Assembly: GCA_963782055.1 (NCBI GenBank)
Contig: CAWAIF010000003.1
Location: 2,720,001 to 2,784,000 of the forward strand
Direction of reading: 5' to 3'
Origin: an uncultured delta proteobacterium
Lineage (GTDB): Bacteria > Myxococcota_A > Polyangia > Polyangiales > Polyangiaceae
Length of the DNA: 64,000 bases
Position 1 is the stretch's first letter, and each line of letters starts with the position of its first letter. The position numbers and the translations under genes were made by a program. The notes below the pieces were generated by a model, which saw only the letters and a program-made list of their open reading frames with translations, was not told the origin of the DNA and did not search any database. Shown piece by piece: positions 5,516 to 22,742 of the stretch.

Positions 5516-5756
5516 GGAATGTAATCTTTAACTGGGCCATTATCGATAGCGTTACCTTCGCCATCTCCAGTGATCACGTGTCCATCCGGACTTATCCCGG
5601 CCCAATCCTTTGGTTCTGCCAAGACTCCCTCCTTGATGTTTCTTTGATGTTGTTTAGTCCATGGTGTCTGATTGATAGGCTTCGTCCCGGTCGGGCAGCC
5701 CTTCGGCTTGGCTCCCTTGGATCGTGATTGGGGCGTCTCAGCGAGCAAGCCAAGCG
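5512..5756 (-). pseudogene. Orphan Rhs/polymorphic toxin C-terminal domain, truncated at the core boundary
   Basis: Begins (x)LGL immediately after repeat A, a remnant of DPLGL; ~78-aa tip; coupled to the DUF4279-like gene. Confidence 0.7.
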
Positions 5757-5804
5757 CATAGGAAATCCTAGCGCGGTCGGGCGCGAAAGTTTACGAAATC
5801 CATC
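5757..5804 (-). repeat. Repeat A copy 1 (ori-side half only)
   Basis: CATAGGAAATCCTAGCGCGGTCGGGCGCGAAAGTTTACGAAATCCATC, identical to 8901-8948. Confidence 0.95.
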
Positions 5805-7007
5805 TTGGACGAAGCCGCTGCGCGGCAGCGTGGCTCCGCATCAAGCACGCTGGCGAGCCGGGAGCCTCGCGAGCGTGTGCGCGCTGGCGAGTCCGCCTCG
5901 TAGCCCTCGCGTGCCGTGACGCGGGCGATCCTGCGGCGCGCGCCGCCCGCTCGTGGGCGCGCGCGGAGCCAAAGGAGGCCGCGATGGGTGCGAAGCGAAG
6001 ACTGCGGGACACGATGAGCGAGGACCTCGCGCTGCGAGGGATGAGCGCCAACACGATCGCCACGTACGTGGGTGCGTGAGGCGGTTCGCGCAGTACCACG
6101 GGCGGTCGCCGTGCGCGCTGGGGGCGGCGGAGATCCGTGCGTTCCTCTTGCACCTGGTGGCGGAGCGCAGGCTGGCGGCGCTGACGGTCAACGTGCACGC
6201 GGCCGCGCTGAGGTTTCTCTACGAGGTGACGCTGGAGCGGCCGGAGGCGACGCTGGGGGATGGCGCGCATGCGGGTGCCGATGCACGTGCCGGTGGTGCT
6301 GACGAGCGCGGAGGTGGCGCGGCTGCTCGCGGCGCTCACGAGCCACAAGCACCGGGCCCTGGTGATGCTCGCCTACGGGGCGGGGCTGCGCGTGAGCGAG
6401 GTGTGCAAGCTCCGGGTGGACGACATCGATCCGAAGCGGATGCTCCTGCACGTGCGGCACTCCGCCAGCCACGCCACCACGCGCCTCGAGACCGCTCGCC
6501 GCAGACTGGGTCCGCACGCGGCGCCCGCTGCGCGACCGGTGCGCCGTGTCGACGCCGCCGACCTGCTGCTGCGAATCGCGGGCATCGACCTGCACCGCTG
6601 CCCCGCTTGCCACACGCCTGCCCTCGTGCGTACCGCGCTGCCGGAGCCCCGAGCTCGCGACCCGCCGGGGGCCGCATGATCTCCCCGCGTCGTGCTCCAC
6701 TGCGCTCGCTCCACGAGTGCGGCCCAGGCCCCTGTCCATCCACGCCACGAAAACCCGGCCTCCGAGCACGCACGGCTGCCCGCTGCGCGCTCCGGGACGC
6801 CCGCGTCGAGCGCCGTCCCGCCGCCCGCTCCGCACCTCGCGCACCCGCGCCCGTGACCCACACGCCGCCAACTTCCCCATAGGGCTCCGAGGCCACCGCC
6901 TCGCCGCTGCCGCGCACCGGCTTCGTCCAACCGTCGATTTCGCGACCGCGCACCCGCGCCACGCGACCGGCGTCACGACCCGGCGCGCTCACGCAATCGA
7001 CTCTTAC
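5805..7007 (+). mobile_element. Internally deleted copy of the integrase + IS91-family transposase element
   Basis: Near-identical to 8949-11469 but lacking 9606-10922 (junction GCAC at 6457-6460); 26-bp inverted repeats at 5805-5830 and 6905-6930. Confidence 0.9.
5984..6679 (+). pseudogene. Fused remnant of tyrosine recombinase N-terminus and Y2 transposase C-terminus
   Basis: ...KRMLLHVRH joined to SASHATTRLE...; additional 1-bp indels near 6070 and 6255. Confidence 0.9.
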
Positions 7008-7016
7008 TTATGGTAA

Positions 7017-7432
7017 ATGCCGCGCCGCATCATCGCTGGCGTGCGGTTCCTCGACGCGCGAGCCACGGTGGTCGGGCACTTCCCTGCTCGTCAGGAGGTG
7101 ATCGAGCTGGCCGCGGACGTCACCGTCTTCCTCCGGCGGCAGCTCAACCAATGGAAGAGCGCGCGAGGGTACGGGCGTCGCGTCCAGGGTCAGCAGGGTG
7201 AGCGGTGGGCGGCCGCGCTCGGCCTCTCCCGCGACGCCGACCTGTGCGACCGACTGGAGCGCTGGTGGGGGACGGGCGAGGTCGCGCTCCAGGAGGTGAC
7301 GCGGGACGGCGGCGCGGTGCTCAGCCCGGCCCGCTTCGACGAAGGCTTCGACGGTCGCTTCACCTTCCTTTGGACGACCAGCCAAGCCCAGCTCCAGCGC
7401 TACGCGCGTCAGCTCCAGCTCGATCCCGAGGC
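7017..7432 (+). pseudogene. Hypothetical gene or fragment cut by repeat B
   Basis: Protein-like ORF running into repeat B at ...LDPEAE. Confidence 0.45.
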
Positions 7433-7553
7433 TGAGCCTCCCCGAAGACGAGGAGATGGTAGCATCGAGGGTGCGTACGGGGCCCGCGGGCGGCGCAACC
7501 GGACATGATGGATGCTAGCGAACCCAGATCGAGGGCCAATCTGGCTTATCCAC
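7433..7553 (+). repeat. Repeat B copy 1 (~121 bp)
   Basis: TGAGCCT...GGCTTATCCAC; 3 mismatches to 8071-8191. Confidence 0.95.
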
Positions 7554-7579
7554 TTCGCCAATGGTGAGGAGGTTTTCGC

Positions 7580-7972
7580 ATGGAGATCAAGGCGCTGCTC
7601 GGGGCGGAAGATCCGGGGGAGCTCGCCGAGGCGGCGATGGACCTCGCCGACGCGCTGGCGGCGCTCGCCGACGCGAAGGGCCGGCCGGGGCTCGCGCCGC
7701 CGGTGGACGTCGCGTACCGCGTGGTGCTTGCGGACGGCGCGATGAACAACGATGGCGCCCGAGCGCTCATCGATTCCGGCATCCCCGCGGAGGAGCTCCT
7801 CTCGGCGCTGCGCGAGATCGGCGCGCCGAAGATGGCCGAGATTCTCGCTGGCGCCCTGGCCGAGCCCGACGACGCCGCGGCGCTCGACCGGTGGAGCGCC
7901 TATCCGGACTACCTCGAGGGGCTGCTCGTCGACTGGGTGACCCGCCATCGCGCGGCGTTCGAGTCCGCGTAG
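7580..7972 (+). CDS. DMP19/DUF4375-like small acidic protein
   Basis: GAGGAGG RBS; DGAMNNDG, ALREIGA and LLVDWVTRH resemble the family pattern. Confidence 0.65.
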   Translation: MEIKALLGAEDPGELAEAAMDLADALAALADAKGRPGLAPPVDVAYRVVLADGAMNNDGARALIDSGIPAEELLSALREIGAPKMAEILAGALAEPDDAAALDRWSAYPDYLEGLLVDWVTRHRAAFESA

Positions 7973-8070
7973 CGGCCCTCGCCAGCTGGAACGCGAAGGG
8001 CCAGACCGCGTCCGGTCCGGCGGGTGCGCCCCGTGCTGGGCCAGCTATGGCTCCCTGCCGCCCTGCCCCT

Positions 8071-8191
8071 TGAGCCTTCCCGAAGACGAGGAGATGGTAG
8101 CATCGAGGGTGCGCCCGGGGCCCGCGGGCGGCGCAACCGGACATGATGGATGCTAGCGAACCCAGATCGAGGGCCAATCTGGCTTATCCAC
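8071..8191 (+). repeat. Repeat B copy 2
   Basis: Direct repeat of 7433-7553. Confidence 0.95.
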
Positions 8192-8432
8192 ATCGCGTCC
8201 TTGATCTTGGTCAGCCCCCTTCTGGGCGCACCCCATCGGGGGGCAGCGGCGCGGGTCGTCAGCGCCGCCACGGCTGTCGAAGGTGCCGCGGGGCTCGGCT
8301 CCGCGGTCCTCGACCCCGGGCACCCGGCGCGGCGGAGGCCATGACGCCCGGTCCGCGGCAGTCGACGCCCGCTGGAGGCTGGACAGCCGGCGGACACCCG
8401 TGGTTTTTTCCACGCACTTCGCGAGGTGCTCC

Positions 8433-8900
8433 GTGCACAAGCTGCTTGCAATCTCCCTGGTCGCATCGCTGGCGGCGTGCTCGGGCAGCTCGACCCCGTC
8501 CGGCTCCACGGGCTCGGCCTCGACGAGCGGCTCCGGCACCACCGGCGCGAGCTCCAGCGGCTCCACCGGCACCAGCAGCACCGGCGGGAGCGGTGGCTCC
8601 ACCGGCGGCGTGCCGCCAGGGGGCAAGCGGATCTTCCTCACCTCGTCGACCTACGAGGGCGGCGCGCTGGGCGGGGTCAGCGGCGCGGACCAGAAGTGCA
8701 CCCTCTCGGCCCAGGCCGTGGGCCTGAGCGGCACCTGGATCGCGCTCGTCTCCGGACTGGACCGCATCAGCGACGTCGGCCCCTGGTACCTGCTCGACGG
8801 CACCAAAGTCTTCAACAACAAGGCCGGGCTCTCGACCACGCCGTTCGCGGTGATCAGCATCGACGAGCGCGGCGGCGCGCACGCGGGCGACGAGCAGGCG
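8433..8900 (+). pseudogene. Lipoprotein with DUF1554-like domain, 3'-truncated by repeat A
   Basis: LAAC lipobox, Ser/Gly/Thr linker, RIFLTSSTYEGGALGGVSGADQKC; breaks at GDEQA into the repeat. Confidence 0.75.
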
Positions 8901-8948
8901 CATAGGAAATCCTAGCGCGGTCGGGCGCGAAAGTTTACGAAATCCATC
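8901..8948 (-). repeat. Repeat A copy 2, ori-side half
   Basis: Matches the corresponding 48 bp of the intact copies at 18679 and 21143. Confidence 0.95.
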
Positions 8949-9128
8949 TTGGACGAAGCCGCTGCGCGGCAGCGTGGCTCCGCATCAAGCTCGCTCGCGA
9001 CCCGGGAGCCCCGCGAGCCGTGTGCGCGCTGACGAGCCCGCCTCGTAGCCCTCGCGTGCCGTGATGCGGGCGATCCTGCGGCGCGCGCCGCCCGCTCGTG
9101 GGCGCGCGCGGAGCCGAAGGAGGCCGCG

Positions 9129-9974
9129 ATGGGTGCGAAGCGAAGACTGCGGGACACGATGAGCGAGGACCTCGCGCTGCGAGGGATGAGCGCCAACACG
9201 ATCGCCACGTACGTGGGGTGCGTGCGGCGGTTCGCGCAGTACCACGGGCGGTCGCCGTGCGCGCTGGGGGCGGCGGAGATCCGGACGTTCCTTTTGCACC
9301 TGGTGGCGGAGCGCAGGCTGGCGGCGCTGACGGTCAACGTGCACGCGGCCGCGCTGAGGTTTCTCTACGAGGTGACGCTGGAGCGGCCGGAGGCGACGCT
9401 GGGGATGGCGCGCATGCGGGTGCCGATGCACGTGCCGGTGGTGCTGACGAGCGCGGAGGTGGCGCGGCTGCTCGCGTCGCTCACGAGCCACAAGCACCGG
9501 GCCCTGGTGATGCTCGCCTACGGGGCGGGGCTGCGCGTGAGCGAGGTGTGCAAGCTCCGGGTGGACGACATCGATCCGAAGCGGATGCTCCTGCACGTGC
9601 GGCACACCAAGCGCGGGCGTGAGCGCTACGTGATGCTCAGCGCGAGGCTGCTGGCGACGCTGCGCGCGTACTGGAAGGCGTCACGACCCGCAGGACCGCA
9701 ACTGTTTCCGGGGCGCGTGCCCGGGACGCTCCTCACGCGCGCGGCCGTCCACCGGGCGATCCTCAAGGCGGCGCGGCGCGCGGGCATCACCCGGCGCGTG
9801 TCGCCGCACACGCTGCGCCACAGCTTCGCCACGCACCTGCTCGACGCAGGGACCGACCTTCGCACGTTGCAGGTCTTGCTCGGGCACGCGTCGCTCAGGA
9901 GCACGATGGCCTACCTGCACGTGAGCACCGCCCGCGTGCAGTCGATTCAGAGCCCCCTCGACGCGCTGCCCTGA
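9129..9974 (+). CDS. Tyrosine recombinase (XerD/IntI-like, SAM-like N-terminal domain)
   Basis: YGAGLRVSE, K, HTLRHSFATH, LLGH, TMAY catalytic residues; GGAGG RBS. Confidence 0.95.
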   Translation: MGAKRRLRDTMSEDLALRGMSANTIATYVGCVRRFAQYHGRSPCALGAAEIRTFLLHLVAERRLAALTVNVHAAALRFLYEVTLERPEATLGMARMRVPMHVPVVLTSAEVARLLASLTSHKHRALVMLAYGAGLRVSEVCKLRVDDIDPKRMLLHVRHTKRGRERYVMLSARLLATLRAYWKASRPAGPQLFPGRVPGTLLTRAAVHRAILKAARRAGITRRVSPHTLRHSFATHLLDAGTDLRTLQVLLGHASLRSTMAYLHVSTARVQSIQSPLDALP

Positions 9975-9980
9975 GCCCCG

Positions 9981-11141
9981 ATGCACCCGTCGTGTGCGCC
10001 CGCGCGCACGCGCGCGGCGCCCATCGAGCTCGCGGACGTGGTGCGCGCCCACGGCGAGGCCTTCGCCGGCGGCCGCGTGCTGCGTCCCGAGGAGCGGTCG
10101 GCGCTGCGGGCGATCGAGCGATGCCGGACCGCCGCGCTGGGCGGACATCTGGACGTGTGCACCGCGTGCGGGCTCGAGCGACCGTCGTACAACTCGTGCC
10201 GCAACCGGCACTGTCCCAAGTGCCAGTCGCTCGCGCAGGCGCGGTGGGTCGCCACGCGGCTCGAGCGCATTCTGCCCGTGCACTACTTCCACGTCGTCTT
10301 CACGCTCCCCGCCGAGCTGCGCGCCGTCGCGCGGCGCTCGCGCGCGCGGGTCTTCGACATGCTCTTCGCGAGCGCGGCCGACACGCTGGCCACCCTCGCG
10401 CGGGATCCGAAGTGGCTCGGCGCCGAGCTCGGCGTCACGATGGTCCTGCACACCTGGACGCGCGCGCTGCTCTTCCACCCCCACGTGCACGCCATCGTCA
10501 CCGGCGGCGGACTCACCGGCGACGCCGCGCGCTGGGTGCGCGCGCGCCGTCGCTTCCTCTTCCCCGTGCGCGTGATGGGCGCGCTCTTTCGCGGCAAGAT
10601 GCTCGCCGCTCTCGAGCGCGCCCACGCGCGCGGCCTCGTCGACCTGGGCGGCGTCGACCTGCTGGCGCTCCGACGCAAGGCCTGGGTCGTCTACGCCAAG
10701 CGACCCTTTGGCGGCCCCGCTCAGGTCATCCGCTACCTCGGTCGCTACACGCACCGCGTCGGCATCTCCAACCACCGCTTCGTCTCGATGGGCGAGCGCG
10801 GCGTCACCTTCCGCACCAGAGACGGCAAGTCGGTCACCGTCCCGGCCGAGGAGCTGCTCGCGCGCTTCGTCCAGCACGTGCTGCCGCGCGGCTTCGTCAA
10901 GATCCGCCACTACGGCCTGCACTCCGCCAGCCACGCCACCACGCGCCTCGAGACCGCACGCCGCAGACTGGGTCCGCACGCGGCGCCCGCTGCGCGACCG
11001 GTGCGCCGTGCCGACGCCGCCGACCTGCTGCTGCGAATCGCGGGCATCGACCTGCGCCGCTGCCCCGCTTGCCACACGCCTGCCCTCGTGCGCACCGCGC
11101 TGCCGGAGCCCCGAGCTCGCGACCCGCCGGGGGCCGCATGA
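9981..11141 (+). CDS. IS91-family Y2 HUH transposase
   Basis: Zn finger (CxxC, SCRNRHCPKC), HPHVH HUH motif, YLGRY, IRHYG. Confidence 0.95.
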   Translation: MHPSCAPARTRAAPIELADVVRAHGEAFAGGRVLRPEERSALRAIERCRTAALGGHLDVCTACGLERPSYNSCRNRHCPKCQSLAQARWVATRLERILPVHYFHVVFTLPAELRAVARRSRARVFDMLFASAADTLATLARDPKWLGAELGVTMVLHTWTRALLFHPHVHAIVTGGGLTGDAARWVRARRRFLFPVRVMGALFRGKMLAALERAHARGLVDLGGVDLLALRRKAWVVYAKRPFGGPAQVIRYLGRYTHRVGISNHRFVSMGERGVTFRTRDGKSVTVPAEELLARFVQHVLPRGFVKIRHYGLHSASHATTRLETARRRLGPHAAPAARPVRRADAADLLLRIAGIDLRRCPACHTPALVRTALPEPRARDPPGAA

Positions 11142-11469
11142 TCTCCCCGCGTCGTGTTCCACTGCGCTCGCTCCACGAGTGCGGCGCAGGCCCCTGTCCA
11201 TCCGCGCCACGAAAACCCGCCCTCCGAGCACGCACGGCTGCCCGCTGCGCGCTCCGGGACGCCCGCGTCGAGCGCCGTCCCGCCGCCCGCTCCGCACCTC
11301 GCGCACCCGCACACGTGACCCACACGCCGCCAACTTCCCCATAGGGCTCCGAGGCCACCGCCTCGCCGCTGCCGCGCACCGGCTTCGTCCAACCGTCGAT
11401 TTCGCGACCGCGCACCCGCGCCACGCGACCGCCGCCGCGACCCGGCGCGCTCACGCAATCGACTCTTAC

Positions 11470-11518
11470 TTATGCGAAGTGGGGCCGTCCGGTGTCACTG
11501 GAAGGACGGACCAGGGTG
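11470..11518 (-). repeat. Repeat A copy 2, inner half
   Basis: TTATGCGAAGTGGGGCCGTCCGGTGTCACTGGAAGGACGGACCAGGGTG. Confidence 0.95.
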
Positions 11519-12672
11519 GCCTGATCGGTGGAGATGTGGAGCAGGTTGCCGCCGAGGAGGAGCGGGTGGGCGCTCACGGGAGGCACGACGCCCCCCTGGA
11601 CCATCGGCGGGTACCAGGAGACCGGCTCCGTCTTGCTCAACCCCCTGGTCGACACGTCCGGCTCCGGCCAGCCGCGGCACTGCAAGCCGCTGTGGCAGAC
11701 CCCGACCGGTGTCACCTTCGTGGAGTCCTCGCCCCACTTGCCGACCACGTCGTAGGTGGTGGTCGGATCGTCGGCGTCGGCGAAGGTGGAGGCGGCGTCG
11801 CCCAGGTCGCTGAGCTGCCAGGTGGCGCCGTTGAGCCAGTCGGCGCCGTTGTCCTGCGTGCCGATGAGCAGCCCACCGGGCGCGCCGGGCACGGTGGCGA
11901 TCGACTGGAGCTGGGTGATCTGCAGCCCGTACTGCGGCTGGTCGTCCCAGACGTCGGCGTTCAGATCGCCGACGAAGAACCCTCCGTCGTTGGCGTCGAA
12001 GCCGAGGAGGTTGCTCCCGTCGACGAACACGTAAAGATCGTGGTGGTCGGGGTGAAGCGCAGCGGCGGTGTTGGAGCCCATCTCGTTCCAGTCCACGCCC
12101 GAGTTGTCCGAGTAACCCAGCATCATCCCGGTGAACCAGAGCTTGGTCGCGTCGGTCGGATGCACGATCAGCTTGTGGCCATACGTGGAGTAGGTGCTGG
12201 GGGCGAGATCCAGGTCTGGCGGCGATTGGACGAACGCGCGCTGTTGCGTCCAGCTCTGCCCGCTGTCGGTGGACTTGTAGATCGCCGGCTGGCACCACCA
12301 GTTGCCCGTGGCCGTGAACCCGCTGGGGCACTGGGCGAGCGCCGCGTAGAGCGTGGAGGTCGTGCTCGGCGCGATGGCGATCTCCGCCCAGTCGGCGGCG
12401 TACTGGCCGCCCGTGAGCAGGGACGCGTCGATACCCGTGTTGATCGGCGTCCAGTTCGCGCCGCCGTCGGTGGACTTGTAGAACCCGGCGCTCTGCAGGC
12501 CCGCGTAGAGGGTCTGCGGATTGCCCGGATCCATCCGGAGCTCGGTCCCCTTGACGCCGGGCTGCCAGAGGACGCGCGACCAGCTCTGCCCGCTGTCGGT
12601 CGATTTGTAGATGCCGTAGCCGCCCGGGGGCGTGGTCTCCACGGTCCCATCGGATGCGCCCGTGACCTGCAT
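11519..12672 (-). pseudogene. Fragment of a BNR/Asp-box (VPS10/xyloglucanase-like) beta-propeller protein
   Basis: Repeated YKSTDxGxxW; LHPDHH, ANDGG, IGTQDNG; no signal peptide; cut by repeat A. Confidence 0.8.
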
Positions 12673-12747
12673 CGGGGGGAGGGGGGCCGGACGGTATGCG
12701 CATCCGGGGGGCGGATGGCGAGGGGGCGAGGAGGCCCTCGAAGGTGG

Positions 12748-12813
12748 CCGCCAATATTGGCGGTGCGGGTCGCCAATATTGGCGGGGGACAGGGAAGGGG
12801 ACAGAGGGGACAG
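12748..12813. repeat. Two tandem perfect palindromes followed by GGGGACAG repeats
   Basis: CCGCCAATATTGGCGG (12748-12763), CGCCAATATTGGCG (12771-12784), then 3x GGGGACAG. Confidence 0.85.
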
Positions 12814-12882
12814 GCCGCCAGGCGACGGCGGCCGCGGCATACCGCGTGACTCTCCCTGGCGCGGTGCGTGCAGCTCGGGGGC

Positions 12883-14271
12883 GTGGCCGGCGCGCCGTTC
12901 GTCTACGAGAGGCGACACCCCGAGGGCACCACGCTCTACGCGGTGGTGCGCGACAACGTCGAGACCCTCTACGCCGCGGTCGCCGAGAGCGGCCTCACGC
13001 TGCCCGCCTTCGTGCGCCAGGAGCTGGAGGGCTACCTGGACTGCGGCCTTCTCTGCCGGGGCTTCGCGCACCTCAAGTGCGAGGAGTGCGGCGAGCGGCG
13101 CGTTGTCGCCTTCGCGTGCAAGGGCCGGGGATTCTGCCCGTCGTGCATGGGGCGGCGCATGGCGCAGACGGCGGCCAACCTCATGGAGAGCGTGCTGCCG
13201 GAGGCCCCGCTGCGGCAGTGGGTGCTCACCATGCCGCACGCCATCCGGCATCGCCTCGCGTACAACGCCCCGCTGCTCGGCAAGGTGACGCGCGCCTTCC
13301 TCGCGACGGTGGTTGCATTCTACAAGAAGCGGGCGGGCGCGAGCGGCTGCGTCGCCGTCGTGCAGCGCACCTCGAGCGATCTCAAGCTCAACCCGCACGT
13401 GCACGCGGTGTTCCTGGACGGCGGGTACGTCGAGGTGGACGGCGAGCCGCGCTTCCGCGCCCTCGGCCACCTGCGAGGTAGCGAGGTCGCCGAGGTGCTC
13501 GCGAGGGCGCGCCGCCGCATCGAGCGGCTGCTCGCCCGCGCCCAGGAGCGTGCCGACGACGAGGACGTGCAGCCGATGCTCACCAGCGTGCGCGGCCACC
13601 CGCCCGCCGGCCCCGCGCTCCGCCGCGGCGCGACCTTCGGGGTGGGCTCCTCGCGCGCCGAGCTCTGCGCCCAGGACGAGGGCTTCAACCTGCACGCCGC
13701 CACCCGCGCCGGCGCCCTCGACGCCGCCGGGCGCGAGGCCCTCTTGCGCTACATCCTGCGTCCCCCCGTCGCCCAGGAGCGCATCGTCGCGGGACCGGAC
13801 AACCTGGTGCGCATCGCGCTCAAGAAGCCCTTCTCCGACGGCACCGTCGCCGTCGACATGGACCCCCTCTCGCTCCTCTTACGCCTCTGCGCCGCCGTCC
13901 CCGCGCCGCGTTTTCATACTGTCCGCTACGCCGGCGTGCTCGCGTCCGCCAGCAAGGTGCGCCCCAAGATCGTCCGCCGTCCACCCGACCCGGCGACGGC
14001 GACAGAGCACGACGACAAGCCGAAGCGCTCGCGCTACTGGCCGTGGGCGGAGCTCATGGCCCGGACGTTCGCGGTGGACGTGCAGAGGTGCCCGAAGTGC
14101 GAGGGCCGCATGAAGCTCGTGGCGATGGTGCAGGAGCCGCGCGGGATCAAGAGGTTCCTCGAGGGGCTCGGCGAGCCGCACGAGGTCCCGCCGCGCGCAC
14201 CGGCCCGCGCTCCTCCCTATTATCGCAGCGCCGTCATCCGCCGGATCGCCGGCGCCATCGTCGCCGCCTGA
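12883..14271 (+). CDS. ISCR/IS91-like HUH transposase, apparently intact (single catalytic Tyr type)
   Basis: YERRHPE, Zn finger (FACKGRGFCPSC), VQR...NPHVH HUH, GFNLHA, LLRYILRPP, VRYAGVLA. Confidence 0.92.
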   Translation: MAGAPFVYERRHPEGTTLYAVVRDNVETLYAAVAESGLTLPAFVRQELEGYLDCGLLCRGFAHLKCEECGERRVVAFACKGRGFCPSCMGRRMAQTAANLMESVLPEAPLRQWVLTMPHAIRHRLAYNAPLLGKVTRAFLATVVAFYKKRAGASGCVAVVQRTSSDLKLNPHVHAVFLDGGYVEVDGEPRFRALGHLRGSEVAEVLARARRRIERLLARAQERADDEDVQPMLTSVRGHPPAGPALRRGATFGVGSSRAELCAQDEGFNLHAATRAGALDAAGREALLRYILRPPVAQERIVAGPDNLVRIALKKPFSDGTVAVDMDPLSLLLRLCAAVPAPRFHTVRYAGVLASASKVRPKIVRRPPDPATATEHDDKPKRSRYWPWAELMARTFAVDVQRCPKCEGRMKLVAMVQEPRGIKRFLEGLGEPHEVPPRAPARAPPYYRSAVIRRIAGAIVAA

Positions 14272-14421
14272 CGCACTGCCCGGGCAGGCACCGGTGCGCG
14301 CGGGGACCGAAAATCAGCCGGCAAATGGCACCATCGAACCGCGGCGACCACGATGGGGACGTTCGGGCGCAGCAACATCACGCCGCCAGGACCGCCCCGA
14401 AGGGGCGCGGCTCGTGGAAAA

Positions 14422-14443
14422 CCGCGCTTGAATCCCGTACGCT
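14422..14443 (+). other. Putative oriIS end of the 12883-14271 element
   Basis: GCGCTTGAATCCCGTA|CGCT downstream of tnp; resembles the ISCR/IS91 oriIS terminus and truncates a neighbouring ORF. Confidence 0.65.
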
Positions 14444-14505
14444 CTCGCTGCTCGCAGGCACCGGCGTGCCTCGGTCTCGTCCTCGATCTTCCGTGCGCTC
14501 GCCAC
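14440..14505 (-). pseudogene. Short N-terminal gene fragment, possibly IS66 TnpA-like
   Basis: GGAGGT RBS + MASARKIEDETEARRCLRAARA, cut at the ori-like end. Confidence 0.4.
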
Positions 14506-14995
14506 TGGTCACCTCCGCGTCGTGCCCGAGCCTGCACGGCGCGCACGCGAAGATCATCCCGGCGTCGCTGATGGGTCACGCGCAGACCCACCGGCTCGGT
14601 GGCGAGCACGACCGACGCCGCGCTGCGATGTCGCGCACGCGGGCCCTCAGCTCCAGCTCGAAGCGCTCGCCCGCGCCGCTGGGATGCCTCGCGATCATGT
14701 GGCGCACGGCTGCCGCCAACGGGATCCGGATGGGCTTCGCCGAGCAAGGGTCGCCGGCTACGTCAGGACGGGGCAGCGCGAGACCTTGCCCTCAGCAGGG
14801 TCAGTGCTCGATGTCGCTGTGCTTCGCCCTGCCGGAGAAGAGCTGCACCCTTCGACAATCGCCGCGCAGAACATCACATCGTTGTAGATCAACAGGAGCC
14901 TTCCGCGTGACGACCCAGTCGGACCGCAACACCGCGCAGAACGTGAGTCAATTGCGGAGCGATTCCCAGCACCCGACGCCATGGGAGACCGCGGT

Positions 14996-16090
14996 TCAGT
15001 CACCGCCAAACGGCGGGTGTGACGCGACCCAGATGTCATACTTTCCGCCGCTCCCCGAGCGCTGACTGGTGAAGTAGAGGCTGCAGGAGTCCGGCGAGAT
15101 CCATCCTGGGATGTCCACACCCTGGTTGGAGGCAAGCTCCGTGACGACGGCGGCGTTCGCGAACAGGGAGCTCGTCGTGGCACGGTTCGCTACCCAGACG
15201 TCGCCTCCTTGATAGTAGTACAGCGTCAGCCCGTCGCCCGTCACCACGGGATGCGGGACATCCGCGACGCCCGACACGAACACTTGCACCGGCTTGGAGC
15301 ATGTCCCCTTGCCAGTGCAGTCCGCCTCGAAGAGAGGCAAGTCAGCGTTGTTGCCCTGCATGGTCAAGTACAACTTACTACCGTCCTCGGTCACATATGG
15401 CCACCGATGGAAGACGTTCGGCTGGCTGACGCCTGTCACCACCGACGGGGTGCCGAATGGCATCGCGGTGCTCGTGCGCTGGCTCACGAAGATGTCGAAG
15501 AATGACGCAGCGTCGAAGTCGTTCGACTCGAAGTACATCGTGAGCCCATCCGCCGTAACAGCCGGGGCGTCGTCTATGAGGGAGCCGTTGACGTTGCCGA
15601 CAGGCGCGACGTTGCCGAAGGCATCGCTCCTTGTCGCGCGGGTGGCCTGGTAGATGTCCACGCTCTGGTTGGCGTTCGCGCCGCGCGCGAAGTAGATCGT
15701 CAGCTCGTCGGGGCTGAGGGAGCCGACCAGCTCGTAGTCCGCCGTGTTGATGTTCCCGCCCAGCGGCGTCGGTGGCATGAAGGGCTTGCCCAGATCGCAC
15801 GGCGGCTGGCCCGAGTCGGTCGGCGCGGCGTGGTCACTTCCGTCCCCACTGGCGTCGAGGTCTGCATCGACCCCCGCGTCGAGGCCCGAGCAGTCGCATG
15901 CCGAGTATGCCGTCCCCGCCGCGTTGCAGACCTGGTACCCGGTGCAGCTCCCGGCGCCGACGCAACTGACCGACTGGTTCGGGATGCATGCCGGGGACGA
16001 CGACACGGGGGGATCGCCTCCGCCGCACTGGAACGCGAGGGCCGCGCCGACCGCCGCGGCGGTGAATAGGACAAGGTACTGTCTCGACAT
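14996..16090 (-). CDS. Lipoprotein with PD40/TolB-like beta-propeller repeats
   Basis: Signal peptide with Cys; repeated SPDELTIYF/TADGLTMYF/TGDGLTLYY; GGAGG RBS. Confidence 0.85.
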   Translation of the reverse strand: MSRQYLVLFTAAAVGAALAFQCGGGDPPVSSSPACIPNQSVSCVGAGSCTGYQVCNAAGTAYSACDCSGLDAGVDADLDASGDGSDHAAPTDSGQPPCDLGKPFMPPTPLGGNINTADYELVGSLSPDELTIYFARGANANQSVDIYQATRATRSDAFGNVAPVGNVNGSLIDDAPAVTADGLTMYFESNDFDAASFFDIFVSQRTSTAMPFGTPSVVTGVSQPNVFHRWPYVTEDGSKLYLTMQGNNADLPLFEADCTGKGTCSKPVQVFVSGVADVPHPVVTGDGLTLYYYQGGDVWVANRATTSSLFANAAVVTELASNQGVDIPGWISPDSCSLYFTSQRSGSGGKYDIWVASHPPFGGD

Positions 16091-16461
16091 GATGCCCTCC
16101 ATCGACCGGCCGCGATGATGGCTCGTCGCCACAACAACACAGAGCACGATCCCACTCGTGGCGCAAGGCGCGGGCCTGCGCTGCCGGCTGCCGGGGACCT
16201 GGTCGTTCCCGGTCCGGCAGCGTTCTCATGGCTGGAGGCGCGCCACCAAGGCCTCCCCACTGACCGCGACCGCGCGCGTGACGGTGCCGGACGGCAAGGT
16301 CATCGTGTCGGCGCGTGTCCGCGCAGCATCCGACCACCACGGAGTCCGGCCACGTGGGGAACGCAAGCCTCAGAAGATGTTCGCGCTGCTCTGCGACGAG
16401 CCGGAGCCGAAGCTCGCCAAGTTCTTCCCACCGGAATCGAACTGCGCGTCGCCTCACACCG

Positions 16462-16980
16462 TTAACGTTGAGTCTCACACGCGCGCGTGCAGGCATTGTG
16501 CACGGCATCGGCTCCGTCAAGGCAGCGTTGCAGAGCGCCTCCGCCATTCGCACACCACGCCCGTCGGCAGGTCCGACGAACCGTGCGAATGCACGTGTTG
16601 CGATCAGCGTTGTCCGCGGCAACGTCGGCTCTACAGTCCTCGAGAATCTGGGGTAGGTCTCCAAGGCACACATTCTCGCAGAACGCACGCGCCGCGAAAC
16701 CACGGCACACTACATGACATTTTTGCGTACGCTCGGTAGCGACGCTCGTACAACTCCCCACATCTTCGGGCGAACCGCATACGGCGTCACCGACCCGGCA
16801 GTATGCGTCGCAGGCGGTACACTCCATGCTCCTGACGAGCACCGGGCGTGCGCAGGCGTCGAGGCAACCAGCGCGACGCTTCCGCGCCACCAGCGCGTCC
16901 CGCTCGGCCATCGGCCTGCAGCCCCATAGACCGAGGGCGACGACGATAAGCAGCGCCGGAAAGGAGGTGACGCGACGCAT
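16462..16980 (-). CDS. Cys-rich lipoprotein
   Basis: LGLWGC lipobox; many CxxxC motifs. Confidence 0.6.
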   Translation of the reverse strand: MRRVTSFPALLIVVALGLWGCRPMAERDALVARKRRAGCLDACARPVLVRSMECTACDAYCRVGDAVCGSPEDVGSCTSVATERTQKCHVVCRGFAARAFCENVCLGDLPQILEDCRADVAADNADRNTCIRTVRRTCRRAWCANGGGALQRCLDGADAVHNACTRACETQR

Positions 16981-17007
16981 CCCAGTTAGCCGCGACATCA
17001 TCATGCG

Positions 17008-18459
17008 TCATGGATCGGTGTTGTCCGTGGCGCGCCGGCACCCGATCGTGAGCCCTTGATCACACGCCTTCGCATACAGCCGTTGAGCAGCTACCGCATC
17101 CGGTCGCGTTCCGACGCCGACCGCCGTGAGCCGCGCCAAAGTCAAGCACGCAGTCGACTCGCCCTCATTGCAGGCCAGATCGTCAAATGATACCGCGATG
17201 CTGGCGTCTCGTGAAGTTCCGATGCCAGCTTCGTAGACGCGGCCCACGTTGGCGCAAGCTTGCCCGAGTCCCTCCTGGCACGCCTTGATGTAGAGCTCTA
17301 CGGCGCGTGCAGCGAACCCGCATCCTGGTGTCCTCTCGTAGACTTGCGCCAAGTCGTTGCAGCCTCCCGCTCCGTCGCGGCCGCCATTCAAGCAGGCTCG
17401 TTTGTAGAGGCGAAGCGCCGTTGCCTCATCCCGCTCGACGCCGAACCCAACTTGGTAGAGCTGCGCAAGGTCCTCGCATCCTACCGGATCGTCATGAGCG
17501 CACGCGTGTCGATATAGCTCCGCGGCGCGGACTGGATTGAAGCTCACCGTAATGCCATGCTGGTAGGCAACGCCCAGGTTGACGCAGGCGCTCTCACCGC
17601 CCCCATGACCACACGCTCGCCGGTATAACTTGACTGCGCGCGCCGTGTCGACGGGTACACCGCGGCCGCTGTCATACAGCCACCCTAGATTGCCACATCC
17701 AACCATGTCACCCCCCGCGCATCCTCGCCAATAGCTCGTCGCCGCGCGAGCGTAATCCTGGATACCACCGCGCCCGCGTTCGAAGAGGGCGCCCAGGTTG
17801 CTGCAGGCGCGAGCCAGACCCCTGCCGCAAAGCGAATCGTAGAGGAGTGCCGCTTGCGGCACATCGCGACTGTCATCGTCGTAGAGCCACGCGAGTTGGA
17901 GGCAGGCCTCGACGTCGCCGGCGTTGCATGTAGCCTGCTGGATGGTGATGGCGTGATCAACGTCTCGCGGGACACCAAGCCCCCCCGCATAATCAATTCC
18001 CAAACGCCTACATCCAACGATCTGTCCCCCGTAGCAAGCACGTTGATTGAGGCGCGCGGCGCGTTTGAGATCGGTGCTCACACCAATGCCGTTCGCGCAG
18101 AGCCACCCCAGGTCCAGACAGCCTTCGGCGTCGCCAAGCTGGCACCCCCGCTCGTCGAGTTCGGCCGCCTGCTTATCGTCTCGACTGACGACAATACCTT
18201 GTAGATAAAGCGATCCCGCCGCCGTACAACTCCCTGCGACGCCGCGGGAGCATTCCAACTGGAGAATGGTGAGGGAAGGGGCGCGCGGGCCGCGCGCCGC
18301 GGTGCTAGCAGTTCCCCTGCAGCATCCAGACGCATCGGGGTTCTCGCCGGACCGACAGAGCGAGCTACATGTCACCGCCTGTCCCTGAGCGGCTGAAGCA
18401 CCGAGCAACGGAAGGAGAAATGCCAGGGGCCAAAGGGGAGGGGAACAGCGCATTCTCAC
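17008..18459 (-). CDS. Secreted Sel1-like repeat protein (Cys-rich, Hcp-like)
   Basis: Signal peptide; about 11 repeats of CxxLGxxYxxGxGVxxDxxxAxxLYxRAC. Confidence 0.9.
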   Translation of the reverse strand: MRMRCSPPLWPLAFLLPLLGASAAQGQAVTCSSLCRSGENPDASGCCRGTASTAARGPRAPSLTILQLECSRGVAGSCTAAGSLYLQGIVVSRDDKQAAELDERGCQLGDAEGCLDLGWLCANGIGVSTDLKRAARLNQRACYGGQIVGCRRLGIDYAGGLGVPRDVDHAITIQQATCNAGDVEACLQLAWLYDDDSRDVPQAALLYDSLCGRGLARACSNLGALFERGRGGIQDYARAATSYWRGCAGGDMVGCGNLGWLYDSGRGVPVDTARAVKLYRRACGHGGGESACVNLGVAYQHGITVSFNPVRAAELYRHACAHDDPVGCEDLAQLYQVGFGVERDEATALRLYKRACLNGGRDGAGGCNDLAQVYERTPGCGFAARAVELYIKACQEGLGQACANVGRVYEAGIGTSRDASIAVSFDDLACNEGESTACLTLARLTAVGVGTRPDAVAAQRLYAKACDQGLTIGCRRATDNTDP

Positions 18460-18678
18460 ATGATAGCTCAGGCGCGCTCACGGGCAAAGGGCGTCCGGTG
18501 GCCTCCGTAGAACTCGTTAGGCTCCCAGTCGCGGTTGACACCCGCTCCAGTCGGAGCCCACGGAAGGCTGCAGGCTCCGCCCGCACGCAGATGTCGGCAG
18601 ATGTTCACTGCTGTCGCACCGGGCGGCCTCGCGAAGGGGGTGCGTGGTGGCGGGGCGGGCCACTCGAACGCTCGAGCG

Positions 18679-18775
18679 CATAGGAAATCCTAGCGCGGTC
18701 GGGCGCGAAAGTTTACGGAATCCATCTTATGCGAAGTGGGGCCGTCCGGTGTCACTAGAAGGACGGACCAGGGTG
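18679..18775 (-). repeat. Repeat A copy 3 (intact, 97 bp)
   Basis: Uninterrupted unit; dif-like site at 18710-18737. Confidence 0.97.
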
Positions 18776-18816
18776 GGTCCCTGGACACAGACACACGACG
18801 CGATCTCCCGAGCGTT

Positions 18817-18833
18817 TGTCAATGCTATTGACA
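18817..18833. promoter_or_regulatory. Operator-like palindrome containing TTGACA
   Basis: TGTCAAT-gct-ATTGACA; no properly spaced -10 found. Confidence 0.3.
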
Positions 18834-18906
18834 TGAGAAACCGCGCAGAATCCGCGGCCAAACGTCCCTGGAAACCGACACCGCGTCATGGACAACGAAG
18901 CGTGCG

Positions 18907-19470
18907 TCAAGTTCGAGTCTTTTTGGGTCGCGGATCGGCGTCGCTCTGGCTTGGCACGCTGAACACTTGGATATCTCCTCGACCAGAACGATCAATCACC
19001 AGTCGTCCAGCACCGTCGAGCAGTCCTTCGCCGTCGAAGACGAGCCCTTGCCCCGCTGCGGCTACGGCAAAGATCAGCGCGTAGTGTTCATCAGAAAAGA
19101 ACGGCTCTCCGACGCAGCCCAGAATCGTGTTGGCCCCATCCAAAATGTGCATCGCCTCGTCACGCTGCGCCTTCCGTTTCCTGACGTCCTGAAAAAAGGT
19201 GGTTGTGCCGAGAATCACTCGATTGAACTTTCCGCGGGCACCACTCGTGCCACCCCCGACATAGCGGGAAAGGTTGATGGTCATCTTCGCGTCTTGGCTG
19301 AACAGCACCGCCTTCTTCCACTCACCATCCTTCGAGGGCCCGCGGCGGCTCAAGCCGAACCGTTGCGCACTGGCTTCGACCAAGCGGCGCACCTCCTCCG
19401 CTTCTGCCTCGCAGAATATCGTGCAGACATCTGTGAATCGTTCGTACTCCTCAGCCGCGCGCCTTCCCAT
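18907..19470 (-). CDS. Putative immunity protein of the upstream Rhs toxin
   Basis: Starts 5 bp after the toxin stop; lower GC; family not recognised. Confidence 0.65.
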   Translation of the reverse strand: MGRRAAEEYERFTDVCTIFCEAEAEEVRRLVEASAQRFGLSRRGPSKDGEWKKAVLFSQDAKMTINLSRYVGGGTSGARGKFNRVILGTTTFFQDVRKRKAQRDEAMHILDGANTILGCVGEPFFSDEHYALIFAVAAAGQGLVFDGEGLLDGAGRLVIDRSGRGDIQVFSVPSQSDADPRPKKTRT

Positions 19471-19475
19471 TCCGC

Positions 19476-21142
19476 TTACCTCTTCTTCTTCCGCCGGCGT
19501 CCGCCCGTCTTCTGGCGCCCGCCGTCATACCCAGTCTTGGCATGCGTTTTGCGATCCACAAGCTGAAGCGTTCGCCCGTCCTGGTGATGGTGCCACGTCA
19601 GGCCGGTGATCCTGGCTTCTTCGTTCTCGATGTCGTCCAGTTGCTGCTTCGTAAATCGCCGACGCTTCCGAGGGTCCTTCTCTAGGGCCTTCTTCAGATC
19701 GCGCGTGGCAAATTTCATCTGCGAGTCATCGGAAACAGATGGATTGCACATACGCTTCGGAAGCTTCTTGTTGTGAAGAGAATCGAATACAGGGTTTCCA
19801 GTCTTGTCGAACCGAACACCCGTCTTCTTGTGTCGCTTGCCGGCCATTTTCATCCGTGCAAGACCGAACGGATCGATGTCATGCGTCGGAGATCCGTCGA
19901 ACCGGAAGGCGTTCGAGTCACCATCTAGACCGAGCGGATCGGGACTCAGCCACCGCATTGTGTCTGGGTCCCAGTATCTATGCCGGACGTATTCAAGTCC
20001 TTCTTCGCAGTCGATGTAGTGCCCCTGAAGGCCGAAACTGAGCCCGTCAGACGCCTTCGTGCCACCCCAGACCGAAAGGTCGTCGCGCTCCAACACTTGG
20101 CCGGACGAGTGGACACCTCCCGTGACCGTCGCCACTGGGTCCTTCAAGTGCTGCACCCAGCGGCCATCGACGCGCTCGGCAACGGGCTCGATTCCGTCGT
20201 CCTCGAAGAGGTATGCTCGTTCGTCGACGATCTCGTCGCCGTTTTCCACCGCCCTTCGCCGCACTTCGTGTGCTAGCGCATCGCCGTCCCACACGAAGCG
20301 CGTGGTTGTCCCGAACACGCGGTCGCCCTCGGTTTCGGCCACTCGCTTTTCTATCCGTCGGGCGAACGGGTCGTACGAAAACTCGACATGCTTCCCATCC
20401 GGTGTGTCCACTTTCTGCAGCAGCCCCGCACCGTTCCACCCATACTGCCACACGCGCTCACCGCTCTCGGTGATTTCGCGCTTGCAAGAGAGCCGACCGT
20501 CACCGTCCCACTCGTATTGCGTGTTCCCCTTCTGCAGCAGTCGGTTGCCTCGGCCATAGCGGCGTTGTGGATCCTTGTCCCCGGCTTCGTAGATGTTGCC
20601 GGCCGGGTCGTACCGGAATACCTCTTCTCGTGCCTTGGCCGGGACCGAAGCCAGCAATTGCCCGACCGGGTCGTATCGGTACTCGGTCTTTCCCCGCCGT
20701 AGATCGTTCTTCTCAATCAGCTCTCCGTCCAGGTCGTACTGGTACGTGGTGTAGGAAGTAACGCCTTCGGGCATGCCCCCAACCCACTCGGGCTCGTCGG
20801 GTCCGGCGGATCGATGCTTTGCGGGAGAACGGACAACGCGTTGGGCAAGACGCCCCATGCGGTCGAAGCCGCTCTCCAGCATGCCTCCGCCCGGCAGGCG
20901 ACGTTGGACCTCGCGGGACAAGATATCGTTGACGTGGTCGATCTGATGGTTCCCGTCGAGCAAGGTACGGACTCGCGCGCCCATGGCATCGCGCTGGACA
21001 CGCTCGGTGTGACCAAGGCTGGTCTCACGGTAGCTGCGCTCGCCTGCAGGTTCATACGTGACGGCGACCCATTGGTCCGTGCCCGCGACGTTCTGGCTCT
21101 CACGGACGATGCGGCCCAACGCGTCGCGTTCGAAGCGGAGCG
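19476..21142 (-). pseudogene. Rhs repeat protein C-terminal half with WHH (HNH/EndoVII-fold) nuclease toxin, 5'-truncated by repeat A
   Basis: YD repeats, RYWDP...WLSPDPLG...IDPFGL core end, LTWHHHQDG...LQLV...TH. Confidence 0.9.
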
Positions 21143-21239
21143 CATAGGAAATGCTAGCGCGGTCGGGCGCGAAAGTTTACGAAATCCATCTCATGCGAAG
21201 TGGGGCCGTCCGGTGTCACTGGAAGGACGGACCAGGGTG
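21143..21239 (-). repeat. Repeat A copy 4 (intact), 38 bp downstream of the transposase stop codon
   Basis: 97-bp unit; dif-like site at 21174-21201. Confidence 0.97.
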
Positions 21240-21277: not shown

Positions 21278-22742
21278 TCAGGCGGCGGGGGGGGCGTCTG
21301 CGGCGAGGTCGAGGAGGTCGGTCGGATCGCGGGCGCGGGCAGGTGCGGGGGCTTCGGCGGGGAGGTCGAGAGCGCGGAGGATGCGGACCACGGCGGCGTC
21401 GTCGGTGATGACGGCGAGGGGACGGAGGCGGCCCCCGCAGGTCGGGCACTGGAGCACGTCGATCTCGAAGGTGCGGCGGAGCAGGCGCGGCCAGTCGATG
21501 CGGGATGTCGCTGCGTAGAGAAGGCCGCGGCGAAGGCGCTCCCAGTGGCCCACGGCGACGACGTTGGGTGCGAGACGGCGCACCTGGAGGTCTGCGGCGG
21601 CCGCGGGTGCGGCGGTCTCGGGCGCGGGTGGCGGGACTGGGAGGGGGAGGGCGAGCTGGCCCGCGGGCGGCGCGCTCGTGGTGCTGGCCGCCCCCGCGGG
21701 ATCGCGGCGCACGGGGTCGGGCCTCTCTGCCGCATGTGTGGTGTCGCGATGCGCCCGCCTCTCGATGGGCTGCCCGGGTTTCGCGGGGACGAGGGGGCGC
21801 GAAGGACGCGGAGGCCCGCAGGACGGGGCGGACGGCTCACGCGGCCTGGGGACCACGAGCTTTCGCCACGACAATCGGGGGGCGAGGACACCGTGGTAGC
21901 GGACAAGTGGGTAGCGCGGCGGCGGGACGAGCGCGGCGACGCGGGCGAGGAGCTCCACCGGAGTGAAGATCATGTGCTTCGCCTTGCCCGCGCGCGGCTG
22001 CTTGACGCGGTAGGCGACGCGGCCGTCGCGCAGGAGGCGTAGGCGCGAGAGGGCGAGCGCGGGGCGCAGGGCGTAGCGGCAGAGGCGCTCGCGGGCGAGA
22101 TCGTCCCGGACGCGGACGCCGGCGTGGAGGTTGAAGCCGGTGTCCTCCACCGCGCGGTGAGCCATGGCGGGGGCGGCTGCGTCGTCGTCGTCGTCGCCGC
22201 CGGGGTCGATCGCGAGCTTCAGCACCTTCGGGCGCTGCATCGCGAGAGCCACGCAGGCGTCGAGGGCGCTCGGCTCGACGTCGAGGTCCACCGGATCCTC
22301 GGAGAGGTGACCGTGGCGGCGGAGCCACGCGATGGCGCGACGGCTGACGGCGGTGACGAGCTGCTGCAGCTCGGCGCGGGTGGGCGCCGGCAACGGCACG
22401 AAGCCGAGGGCGCCGCTGGCCGCGTCCTCGAAGCCGACGGCGCGGGCGCGCCGGCGGTGGCTGGCGAAGATGGCGTCGGCGAAGATGCGCGCGAGCGCGC
22501 GCAGCACCACAGGGTCGAAGGCGGCGAGGCGGCGGAGCTCGTACGGCAGCGAGAGGACGTACTGGCGGAGGGGGACGTCCGGGAGCACGCGGTCGACCAG
22601 GTGGGCGGCGGTGTTCGCCATGCGACGGCCGGCGCAGCTCGGGCAGACGCTGCGGCCCTGCAGGAGAAGGCGACGAGCAGATCGTGGCCGCAGGTGTCGC
22701 ACCGGGCGCGGAGGAAGCCGTGGCGGAAGACGCCGCACCTCC
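21278..22742 (-). pseudogene. ISCR/IS91-like HUH transposase pseudogene
   Basis: RCGVFRHGF...CDTC...AFSC, CPSCAGRRM, GFNLHA, LCRYALRP, VRYHGVLAP present; N-terminus missing, frameshift ~22660, QR...HxH segment deleted ~22409. Confidence 0.9.

Follow-up and report, generated by a model that had tools for sequence, protein, structure and literature searches.

What does an integron-integrase-like tyrosine recombinase do in a rolling-circle transposon? ISfinder lists members of the IS91 family with an upstream 'phage integrase' gene (ISAzo26, ISWz1 and others), and one such element lies in the DNA analysed here, a stretch of 64,000 nucleotides (nt) from an uncultured delta proteobacterium of the Polyangiaceae (GenBank assembly GCA_963782055.1, contig CAWAIF010000003.1, below contig 3, positions 2,720,001 to 2,784,000; hereafter the window, numbered from its first base). 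The complete element occupies positions 8949-11469 on the plus strand (2521 bp, with boundaries ambiguous by 2-3 shared nt) and encodes a recombinase (Int) and an IS91-family Y2 transposase with an HUH motif (Y2). The original prediction held that Y2 makes a single-stranded DNA (ssDNA) circle, that the recombinase integrates it, and that the element parasitises the dif-like sites of the surrounding array. We observed repeated insertion in one orientation, a covarying junction fold biased towards the bottom strand, and two enzyme genes that are intact and conserved. On this basis, the model in which Y2 produces a circle of the bottom strand, which the recombinase then integrates through a single strand exchange where spacer and arm adjoin, appears to us possible, with a likelihood a little below even.

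Insertion at one base of a dif-like unit

The element was found between the two halves of a target unit of approximately 100 nt. The left half (53 nt, positions 8896-8948, plus strand) carries the XerD-like arm and the spacer of a dif-like core, and the right half (11470-11518, plus strand) begins with the XerC-like arm and continues into a palindrome 13 nt from the joint. In uninterrupted units, of which a motif scan found 20 across the genome, the two halves were contiguous, as in the empty site at 18674-18775 (plus strand). Upon comparison of uninterrupted with occupied units, we found that they differed by exactly the element; this comparison set the boundaries to within a shared C^TT, which was the only sequence common to both joints and upheld the earlier claim that homology at the crossover is limited to these bases. 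The joint falls where the spacer meets the XerC-like arm. As had been noted, both element copies in the window started at this base, each after the same 53 nt, and the replaced arm resembled the incoming one, the first 11 nt of the element matching it at 7 of 11 positions (read by eye).

The same arrangement was evident genome-wide, where we identified 14 left and 13 right element ends. Eleven of the 14 left ends were preceded by the same left half, cut at the identical base, and the outer flanks beyond the unit differed in all 11 (read by eye); the remaining three adjoined a group II intron sitting 1 nt inside the element end. The right half of the unit, or a variant of it, followed 12 of the 13 right ends. 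Among all of these ends in the whole genome, no element copy was found outside a unit, and all copies shared one orientation relative to it. One copy occupied a variant unit with a different spacer, and a fragment of a diverged subfamily (78% identity) was inserted at the same unit base. This pattern of insertion at one base cannot be attributed to chance or to a tetranucleotide preference. The exception among the right ends was the first copy in the window, in which a unit left half (5752-5804) is followed by an element (5805-7008; both on the plus strand) that has lost element positions ~661-1970 by internal deletion and carries a frameshifted recombinase gene. Its right flank (7009-7040) is not the unit right half and starts with a stretch resembling an XerD-type arm; it could be either a variant target or the product of a later rearrangement.

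A pattern search with the unit core returned one additional near-match in this genome and one in a sister genome of the same genus (G004). The match in this genome, at positions 3558738-3558766 of contig 3 and outside the window, is a unique site located 50.8% of the way along the contig, where the cumulative GC skew peaks (3.56 Mb), and is likely to be the true chromosomal dif. The unit core matched it at 24 of 29 bases, in both arms plus 4 of the 6 spacer bases, which supported the view that the target is dif-like. The true dif itself was uninterrupted and carried no element.

Insertion sites in relatives had the same arms in the sister genome and resembled dif only loosely in other phyla. 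G004 contained four element copies (77% identity), whose targets had the same arms with another spacer. The right end of the G004 element carries 11 extra bases that include the target spacer, so attP and attB there share the whole central region (6-nt spacer); in one copy, the spacers of the left and right junctions differed by one base, each retaining the version of its parent. In a genome of another phylum (G082, locus L185), 46 element matches were found, and 17 full-length copies of four subfamilies were examined. Each subfamily repeated its own 5 nt at both joints, and positions 3, 7 and 8 of the right flank were identical in 15, 15 and 14 of the 17 copies, respectively (read from printed flanks). 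Many of these sites read as ..AA / ~6 nt / TTAT-type core, with weak conservation on the left side, and the copies were clustered and co-oriented. Judging by these flanks, insertion is site-specific in another phylum as well, at sites only loosely dif-like. A search for the 18-mer at the right end in 61 genomes of the family yielded only chance-level matches outside the element's own genome.

These observations bear on two ways in which copies could have spread without targeting by an element-borne enzyme. The units are 94-100% alike and clustered, and some neighbouring flanks are duplicated in G004, as would be expected if segmental duplication or homologous recombination between units had spread the copies. 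However, the 11 different left outer flanks largely refute this explanation, and the exact difference between empty and occupied units and the same behaviour in unrelated genomes also count against it, leaving it barely credible. A more specific proposal is that the host XerC and XerD proteins integrate the element, as for IMEX, and that the element-borne recombinase has another task. The resemblance of the unit core to dif extends over both arms, the joint lies where XerC would cut, and candidate host Xer-type genes were detected by tblastn (32-40% identity to the element recombinase); against this, every full-length copy keeps its own intact recombinase, four of the 11 bases in the element arm at the joint deviate from the XerC-like arm, the true dif is empty, and relatives in other phyla use sites that are only loosely dif-like. 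Integration by the host enzymes appears very improbable to us.

Element ends and the folded junction

The left, ter-like end of the element is formed by a terminal inverted repeat (8949-8974) with a TTRRRY-type box, an arm resembling the XerC arm, and a small palindrome; the core of this repeat was conserved in relatives from several phyla. The predicted 26-bp inverted repeat was recovered, since the internal copy (11367-11392), which ends in an RYYYAAC-type box, matched the terminal copy at 25 of 26 positions. Upstream of the internal copy lies a CCATAG-type motif (11337-11345), which occupied the same relative place in most relatives. The ori-side end further contains a subterminal hairpin (11395-11463), whose base stem, formed by 11395-11407 with 11451-11463, has 11 of 13 positions paired, as originally described, and a terminal hexamer (11464-11469). 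All of these features are given on the plus strand.

When the two ends were joined, the minimum-energy DNA fold consisted of a long stem and the hairpin, including its base stem, with 2 nt opposite 6 nt (the hexamer) left unpaired at the junction. This fold reproduced the anticipated asymmetric bulge, and its energy of -54.6 kcal/mol was far below that of 20 shuffles (-29.3 +/- 2.6). By sequence, xTTRRRY follows the crossover in the left end and RYYYAAC is present in the internal repeat, both resembling the R boxes of integrons; the first base of the R'-type box is C here. As a duplex, the joined ends form two inverted core-like sites, one composed of the internal repeat and the 5' hairpin arm and the other of the 3' hairpin arm and the terminal repeat, and the modelled structure supports the idea that folding turns them into one imperfect site, as in CTX attP. 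In IMEX of the CTX type, attP is formed by folding of two inverted dif-like sites of one strand; the fold of the joined ends here exists and covaries, and it may be used as a substrate in a comparable way.

Relatives were collected by scanning genome contigs with an alignment of six proteins, and 79 loci were considered among the matches listed (>601 in all). A Y2 gene lay immediately downstream on the same strand in 37 of these 79 loci, which included Acidobacteriota, Alpha- and Betaproteobacteria, Gemmatimonadota, Clostridia, Planctomycetota and others. None of the 23 callable downstream open reading frames (ORFs) of the other 42 loci, which encode recombinase homologues of 30-41% identity, was a Y2 gene, indicating that the Int-Y2 pairing marks one clade only. 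Wherever the motifs could be placed, the order at the end was shared: a CCATAG-type motif, the internal repeat, the hairpin, and a CTA-containing tail of 5-8 nt. After the tail came 1-5 nt that recur at the left joint, followed by the terminal repeat with its small palindrome. Fifteen junctions were curated from 24 tried, after calling by the longest shared k-mer had misplaced several right ends; L159, L164, L166, L174, L175, L192, L203, L226 and G011 were dropped for unclear right ends.

All 15 curated junctions folded below their shuffles (z from -2.1 to -11.5), and the bottom strand folded better in 14 of them. We counted 34 G-T wobbles in the bottom strand and 13 in the top strand (binomial p ~0.003, which overstates the significance because several sequences are close kin), and this bias points to the bottom strand, the strand that IS91 uses. 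Covariation of the stems, which the original prediction implied, was evident in the subterminal hairpin across phyla. Cognate hairpin arms were complementary at 16.7 positions on average, compared with 11.1 +/- 1.9 for non-cognate arms (210 pairs). In a MAFFT alignment of the 15 ori-side ends with a 14-pair helix given by hand, 71.4% of the cells were paired versus 58.7 +/- 2.2 in shuffles, a value reached by 0 of 500 shuffles; compensatory cells numbered 28 versus 12.0 +/- 3.0 in shuffles, and 10 pairs changed on both sides. Slid-helix controls had 27.6-46.0% of their cells paired. The rows of the window element and of G004 were shifted relative to the helix in its outer six pairs, where they were counted as unpaired. 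RNAalifold predicted no consensus structure on this alignment because the 3' arms were partly misaligned, for which reason the helix was supplied by hand.

The duplex form of the junction also admits a classical route. Here, the recombinase would excise and re-integrate a double-stranded (ds) circle through a junction core made of the hairpin arm, a 6-9 bp spacer and the terminal arm, with no folded ssDNA, and Y2 would serve only replication or rarer, separate rolling-circle moves. A core of the 11-6-11 type is indeed present in the duplex circle junction; the attP and attB spacers of G004 are identical, as needed for a full two-strand exchange, and in some relatives the 3' hairpin arm resembles the inverted terminal arm (read by eye). 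In the window element, by contrast, only 3 of the 6 spacer bases are shared with the target, and one occupied unit has yet another spacer. Moreover, the G-T wobble bias and the better bottom-strand fold argue for selection on a single strand, and a site functioning purely as a duplex would leave the long internal repeat without a role. We consider a purely double-stranded route quite improbable.

The two enzymes and the joining step

The element at 8949-11469 is intact, in a host genome with a G+C content of 72%. Five full-length copies were found in the genome with 99-100% identity, the others being deleted or interrupted. The recombinase gene (9129-9974, plus strand; nine full-length copies in the genome, 100% identical) encodes 281 amino acids (aa) with the Pfam domains Phage_integrase and Phage_int_SAM_4. 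Its top NCBIfam match was the integron integrase model TIGR02249, which outranked XerA, XerD and XerC, with a score of 198.9 bits (cut-off 265) and a match split into two stretches; this split match and the length of 281 aa are consistent with a recombinase lacking the IntI-specific insertion, and the extra helical segment of the IntI catalytic domain was absent. According to the available part of a previous report, recombinases of IS91 and IS3 elements group as 'Integron-like' without this insertion (10.1101/542381). Residues R136, K161, H227, R230, H253 and Y262 were invariant in an alignment with six relatives of 34-75% identity, and the recombinase looks functional from its sequence.

The second gene (9981-11141, plus strand) begins 6 nt past the recombinase stop and encodes a transposase of 386 aa with the Pfam domains Zn_Tnp_IS91 and Y2_Tnp, which scored 389.7 bits on NCBIfam NF033538 (IS91 family transposase; cut-off 125). 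The protein combines a zinc-binding N-terminus and the Y2_Tnp domain with an HUH motif (H-V-H at codons 168-170) and two catalytic tyrosines, Y252 and Y256 (read from the sequence). As is typical of the IS91 family, the element has two unlike ends, a box with a palindrome on the left and a hairpin with a short tail on the right, and produces no target-site duplication, the joints sharing only 2-3 nt.

In the model that we tentatively favour, Y2 would first nick the ori-side end downstream of its gene and free the bottom strand as an ssDNA circle, in which the ter-side and ori-side ends are joined; circle formation is assigned to Y2 by homology. In the second step, the terminal repeat would pair with the internal inverted copy while the subterminal hairpin closes alongside, and two inverted half-sites would become one imperfect duplex with two arms and an unpaired 2-vs-6-nt centre, in the manner of CTX attP(+) and of the attC bottom strand. 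This fold is the one computed above; its use as the substrate is proposed. In the third step, the IntI-like recombinase would bind the TTRRRY/RYYYAA box of the fold and the similar XerC-like arm of the dsDNA target, cut the bottom strands at the arm/spacer boundary and exchange one strand pair, and replication would resolve the junction. No second exchange would occur because the spacers differ (3 of 6 alike), and a single exchange would place both new joints at one phosphodiester, as all copies show. A derivative in which a 199-bp deletion removes both Y2 tyrosines and leaves the recombinase intact was found at four different sites, and its spread fits this two-enzyme model. Thus, of the original prediction, the site targeting, the fold and the IntI-like nature of the recombinase stood, whereas the assignment of the joining step to the recombinase rather than to Y2 was less well borne out.

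The joining step is where the biology of integrase-less relatives has to be considered. The available part of a study of IS91 (PMC13181058) describes four active integrase-less members with tetranucleotide targets and palindromic, non-inverted ends. In these, terIS is located upstream of the gene and oriIS downstream of it, each with subterminal palindromes, and the ter palindrome adjoins the cleavage site; the canonical target (GTTC, CTTG or GTCC on the bottom strand) adjoins oriIS and equals the ter cleavage box. The same source reports that in E. coli TnpA of IS91 suffices to excise and insert the bottom-strand ssDNA circle, that this circle is a working intermediate, and that the upstream Orf121 sharpens terIS cleavage and tunes site choice. 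We compared an IS1294-like integrase-less element, whose three plasmid copies each started exactly at a GAAC box followed by a palindrome. Its right flank began with GAAC or GGAC in 3 of 3 copies, its best end-to-end repeat was 10 nt, and its junction fold was weak (-27.3 versus -21.9 +/- 2.7; z ~-2). The GAAC-type box with palindrome, the CCATAG motif and the CTA-type tail were common to this comparator and the Int+Y2 element, which indicates that part of the end architecture serves Y2 and that the CCATAG motif is probably a Y2 (oriIS) feature. By sequence comparison, the long repeat, the joint shifted 2-5 nt outward and the long target distinguish the integrase-bearing branch. The right flank began with bases other than the canonical tetranucleotide at 13 of 13 right ends in this genome and in the curated relatives.

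As the main alternative, Y2 alone might release and insert the circle, taking the unit right half (palindrome plus ~13 nt) as terIS. The recombinase could then be an accessory that improves termination fidelity like Orf121, resolves multimers at the repeat and hairpin, or acts in regulation; the internal ds core-like site (repeat, short spacer and hairpin arm) could be the resolution site. In addition to the IS91 experiments, this reading gains from the end motifs shared with an integrase-less element, from the common arm-then-palindrome layout of the unit right half and the element left end, from the 1-5 nt repeats at both joints, as the tetranucleotide rule predicts, and from integrase-less Y2 genes within and at the ends of the arrays. 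We nevertheless judge it rather unlikely. The 2-3 shared nt are too few to account for the lack of insertions outside units, the right flank never begins with the GAAC-type box of the canonical rule that the comparator follows in 3 of 3 copies, all six catalytic residues of the recombinase have been retained in relatives of 34-75% identity, and the dif mimicry of the target extends to both sides of the joint, beyond the ter-like side.

Several of these points weigh directly against integration by the recombinase. Insertion by IS91 TnpA alone makes the recombinase dispensable in principle; the ter-end box with palindrome, the CCATAG motif and the CTA-type tail also occur in the integrase-less relative; the 1-5 nt repeated at both joints equally fit the HUH rule, in which the target is identical to the final bases of the ter end; and the palindromic right half of the unit looks like a foreign terIS that Y2 could cleave, in arrays that contain integrase-less Y2 genes. 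Additionally, the conserved right flank in G082 is unlike the element's own arm, and the unpaired centre is 2 vs 6 nt here and 0-2 vs 5-8 nt in relatives, whereas attC spacers are roughly equal. The Y2-dead derivative may have moved in trans via intact copies. Neither a circle, an excision product nor a free strand was directly observed. Six metagenome runs contained part of the window (share 0.07-0.36), and the contigs of four of them, which were short, low-depth pieces, contained neither a right-end/left-end joint nor an empty-site joint, although such contigs cannot show rare circles. On balance, we regard the element as an active member of an integrase-bearing IS91 branch that may move by the two-enzyme cycle, a proposal that falls only slightly short of an even chance.

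Arrays, introns and known systems

The units occur as direct repeats with a dif-mimic core, 0.1-12 kb apart, in the window (5752-21239) and in other clusters. Blastn returned 66 unit matches in the genome, clustered on contig 3 at ~2.72-2.74, 4.41-4.49, 5.18-5.27 and 6.17-6.33 Mb. In the window, the segments between units encode a toxin C-terminus of the RHS/colicin-DNase type and Sel1, PD40 and DMP19-like proteins, and the arrays look like cassette arrays without an integron integrase. The statement that the element parasitises the array's own sites was right as a description. The last uninterrupted unit of the window array (21138-21239, plus strand) is followed by an integrase-less IS91-like Y2 gene (21278-22786, minus strand), and such a gene, pointing into the array, was found just past the last unit in three arrays; the other two copies are at 4409971-4411350 (plus strand) and 5265401-5266780 (minus strand) of contig 3, and the copies are 90% identical. 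The last unit and this gene together form one repeat of ~2 kb that resembles an array 'head'. A further, distant Y2 gene (12868-14271, plus strand; Zn_Tnp_IS91 and Y2_Tnp) lies inside a cassette in the orientation of the units; fragments of it are present in other cassettes, and it overlaps a long minus-strand ORF with BNR-like repeats (11470-13695). Elsewhere in the window, two segments of ~1.5 kb (32800-34354 and 48174-49716), 75-84% alike and 15.4 kb apart, are probably paralogous genes, and the 15/18-nt tandem repeats at 51034-51191, rich in ACG/GGC, are probably a repetitive coding stretch.

The sequence adjoining three left ends was identified as a group II intron by its RVT_1 and GIIM domains and its start, GTGCG; Rfam gave no match at the gathering score on this locus. 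The three intron-bearing copies lie outside the window, at 2272361-2274252, 5212702-5216047 and 6186555-6191356 of contig 3. The intron is on the opposite strand, 1 nt inside the element end and just behind the terminal palindrome, and in one recombinant copy it is fused to the internal repeat. We considered and rejected a rival element with the same target site, the sequence being a group II intron that carries an insertion sequence (IS) of 1.45 kb. On Paraburkholderia plasmid pBN3 (L241, 1-1480), a group II intron also accompanied the left end of an Int+IS91 element, and the position behind the end hairpin recalls introns that home to integron attC hairpins. Likewise, a 1525-bp insert in a unit (contig 3, 4450608-4452132) was rejected as a site-specific guest; it is an ordinary multi-copy IS with an 8-bp duplication and 16 full-length blastn matches in the genome, and differs from the 1.45-kb IS of the intron.

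We compared the element with known systems and found partial similarity to each. It resembles the IS91 family in its IS91-equivalog transposase score, in its terIS/oriIS flanking arrangement with subterminal palindromes and in the lack of target duplication. In contrast to IS91, IS801, IS1294 and IS1294b, which target a tetranucleotide equal to the end box, its target is of the 28-bp class, and compared with the canonical members its joint lies 2 nt outward of the box, its inverted repeat is 26 nt long and its junction fold is stronger. As in CTX-phi and IMEX, the target is dif-like and two inverted core-like sites fold in one strand with an unpaired centre; the single XerC-side strand exchange, heterologous spacers and an HUH-made single strand would be further likenesses under our proposal. 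Val et al. (2005) reportedly described for CTX a folded attP, a single XerC-side exchange and an HUH enzyme that supplies the single strand. The element differs from CTX-phi and IMEX in encoding its own recombinase, in leaving the chromosomal dif unused, and in lacking phage genes; IMEX lack a recombinase of their own and integrate at the chromosomal dif, and the HUH protein of CTX-phi is a phage replication protein, whereas that of the element is a Y2 transposase.

The similarity to integron cassettes comprises a recombinase nearest to IntI, boxes that read by eye as TTRRRY and RYYYAAC with a fitting crossover position, a modelled bottom-strand fold in which an unpaired centre lies between the R-box stem and a second stem, and a location within site-bounded cassette arrays in one orientation. 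However, the TIGR02249 score is below the cut-off (198.9 vs 265) with a split match, the R-box stem extends over 26 bp, the centre left unpaired is asymmetric, a dif-like site takes the place of attI as the partner, and the element encodes its own mobility enzymes. Acinetobacter plasmid pdif modules are similar in being segments bounded by dif-like XerC/XerD sites outside the chromosome terminus. The pdif sites alternate in orientation and have no 100-nt conserved context, whereas the units described here form direct-repeat arrays associated with Y2 transposase genes.

The element type is thus already known. The available part of one report notes the two-gene layout for IS91-associated recombinases (10.1101/542381), and IS91-like or ISCR elements are noted beside attC sites in the accessible portions of others (PMC9229058, PMC12772301). 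We did not find the target, the att site or the recombinase role of integrase-bearing IS91 members in the full-text literature searched, whose coverage does not extend to subscription journals, and neither dif-mimic targeting nor the junction fold was found there.

The recombinases most closely related to integron integrases are carried by IS91-type elements, where the literature searched gives them no role, and the biology of IS91 has been worked out on integrase-less members only. The genome described here provides a natural experiment on this point, with a recently active family that has inserted independently about a dozen times at one base, empty sites, and a Y2-dead derivative with an intact recombinase that still spread. 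If the recombinase joins the circle, rolling-circle transposons, Xer/dif hijackers and integrons would be linked, and the origin of single-stranded attC recombination would become testable with an element of 2.5 kb. If Y2 acts alone, HUH transposases would be capable of site-specificity of the 28-bp class, which would also be new. As a broader and frankly speculative extension, unlikely as it stands, integrase-bearing IS91 elements might be self-mobilising 'cassettes', in which an HUH enzyme supplies a folded strand and an IntI-like enzyme inserts it into any resident tyrosine-recombinase site; they might then be the nearest living model for the origin of integron recombination, and the arrays, in which direct repeats of a dif mimic delimit genes of the toxin/immunity type, might represent a third type of cassette platform that relies on dif mimics and rolling-circle enzymes and has no integron integrase. 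The relative ISWz1 has been described in resistance islands, flanking resistance genes (PMC11322121, available part), and the targeting rules of this branch may consequently bear on the movement of resistance genes.

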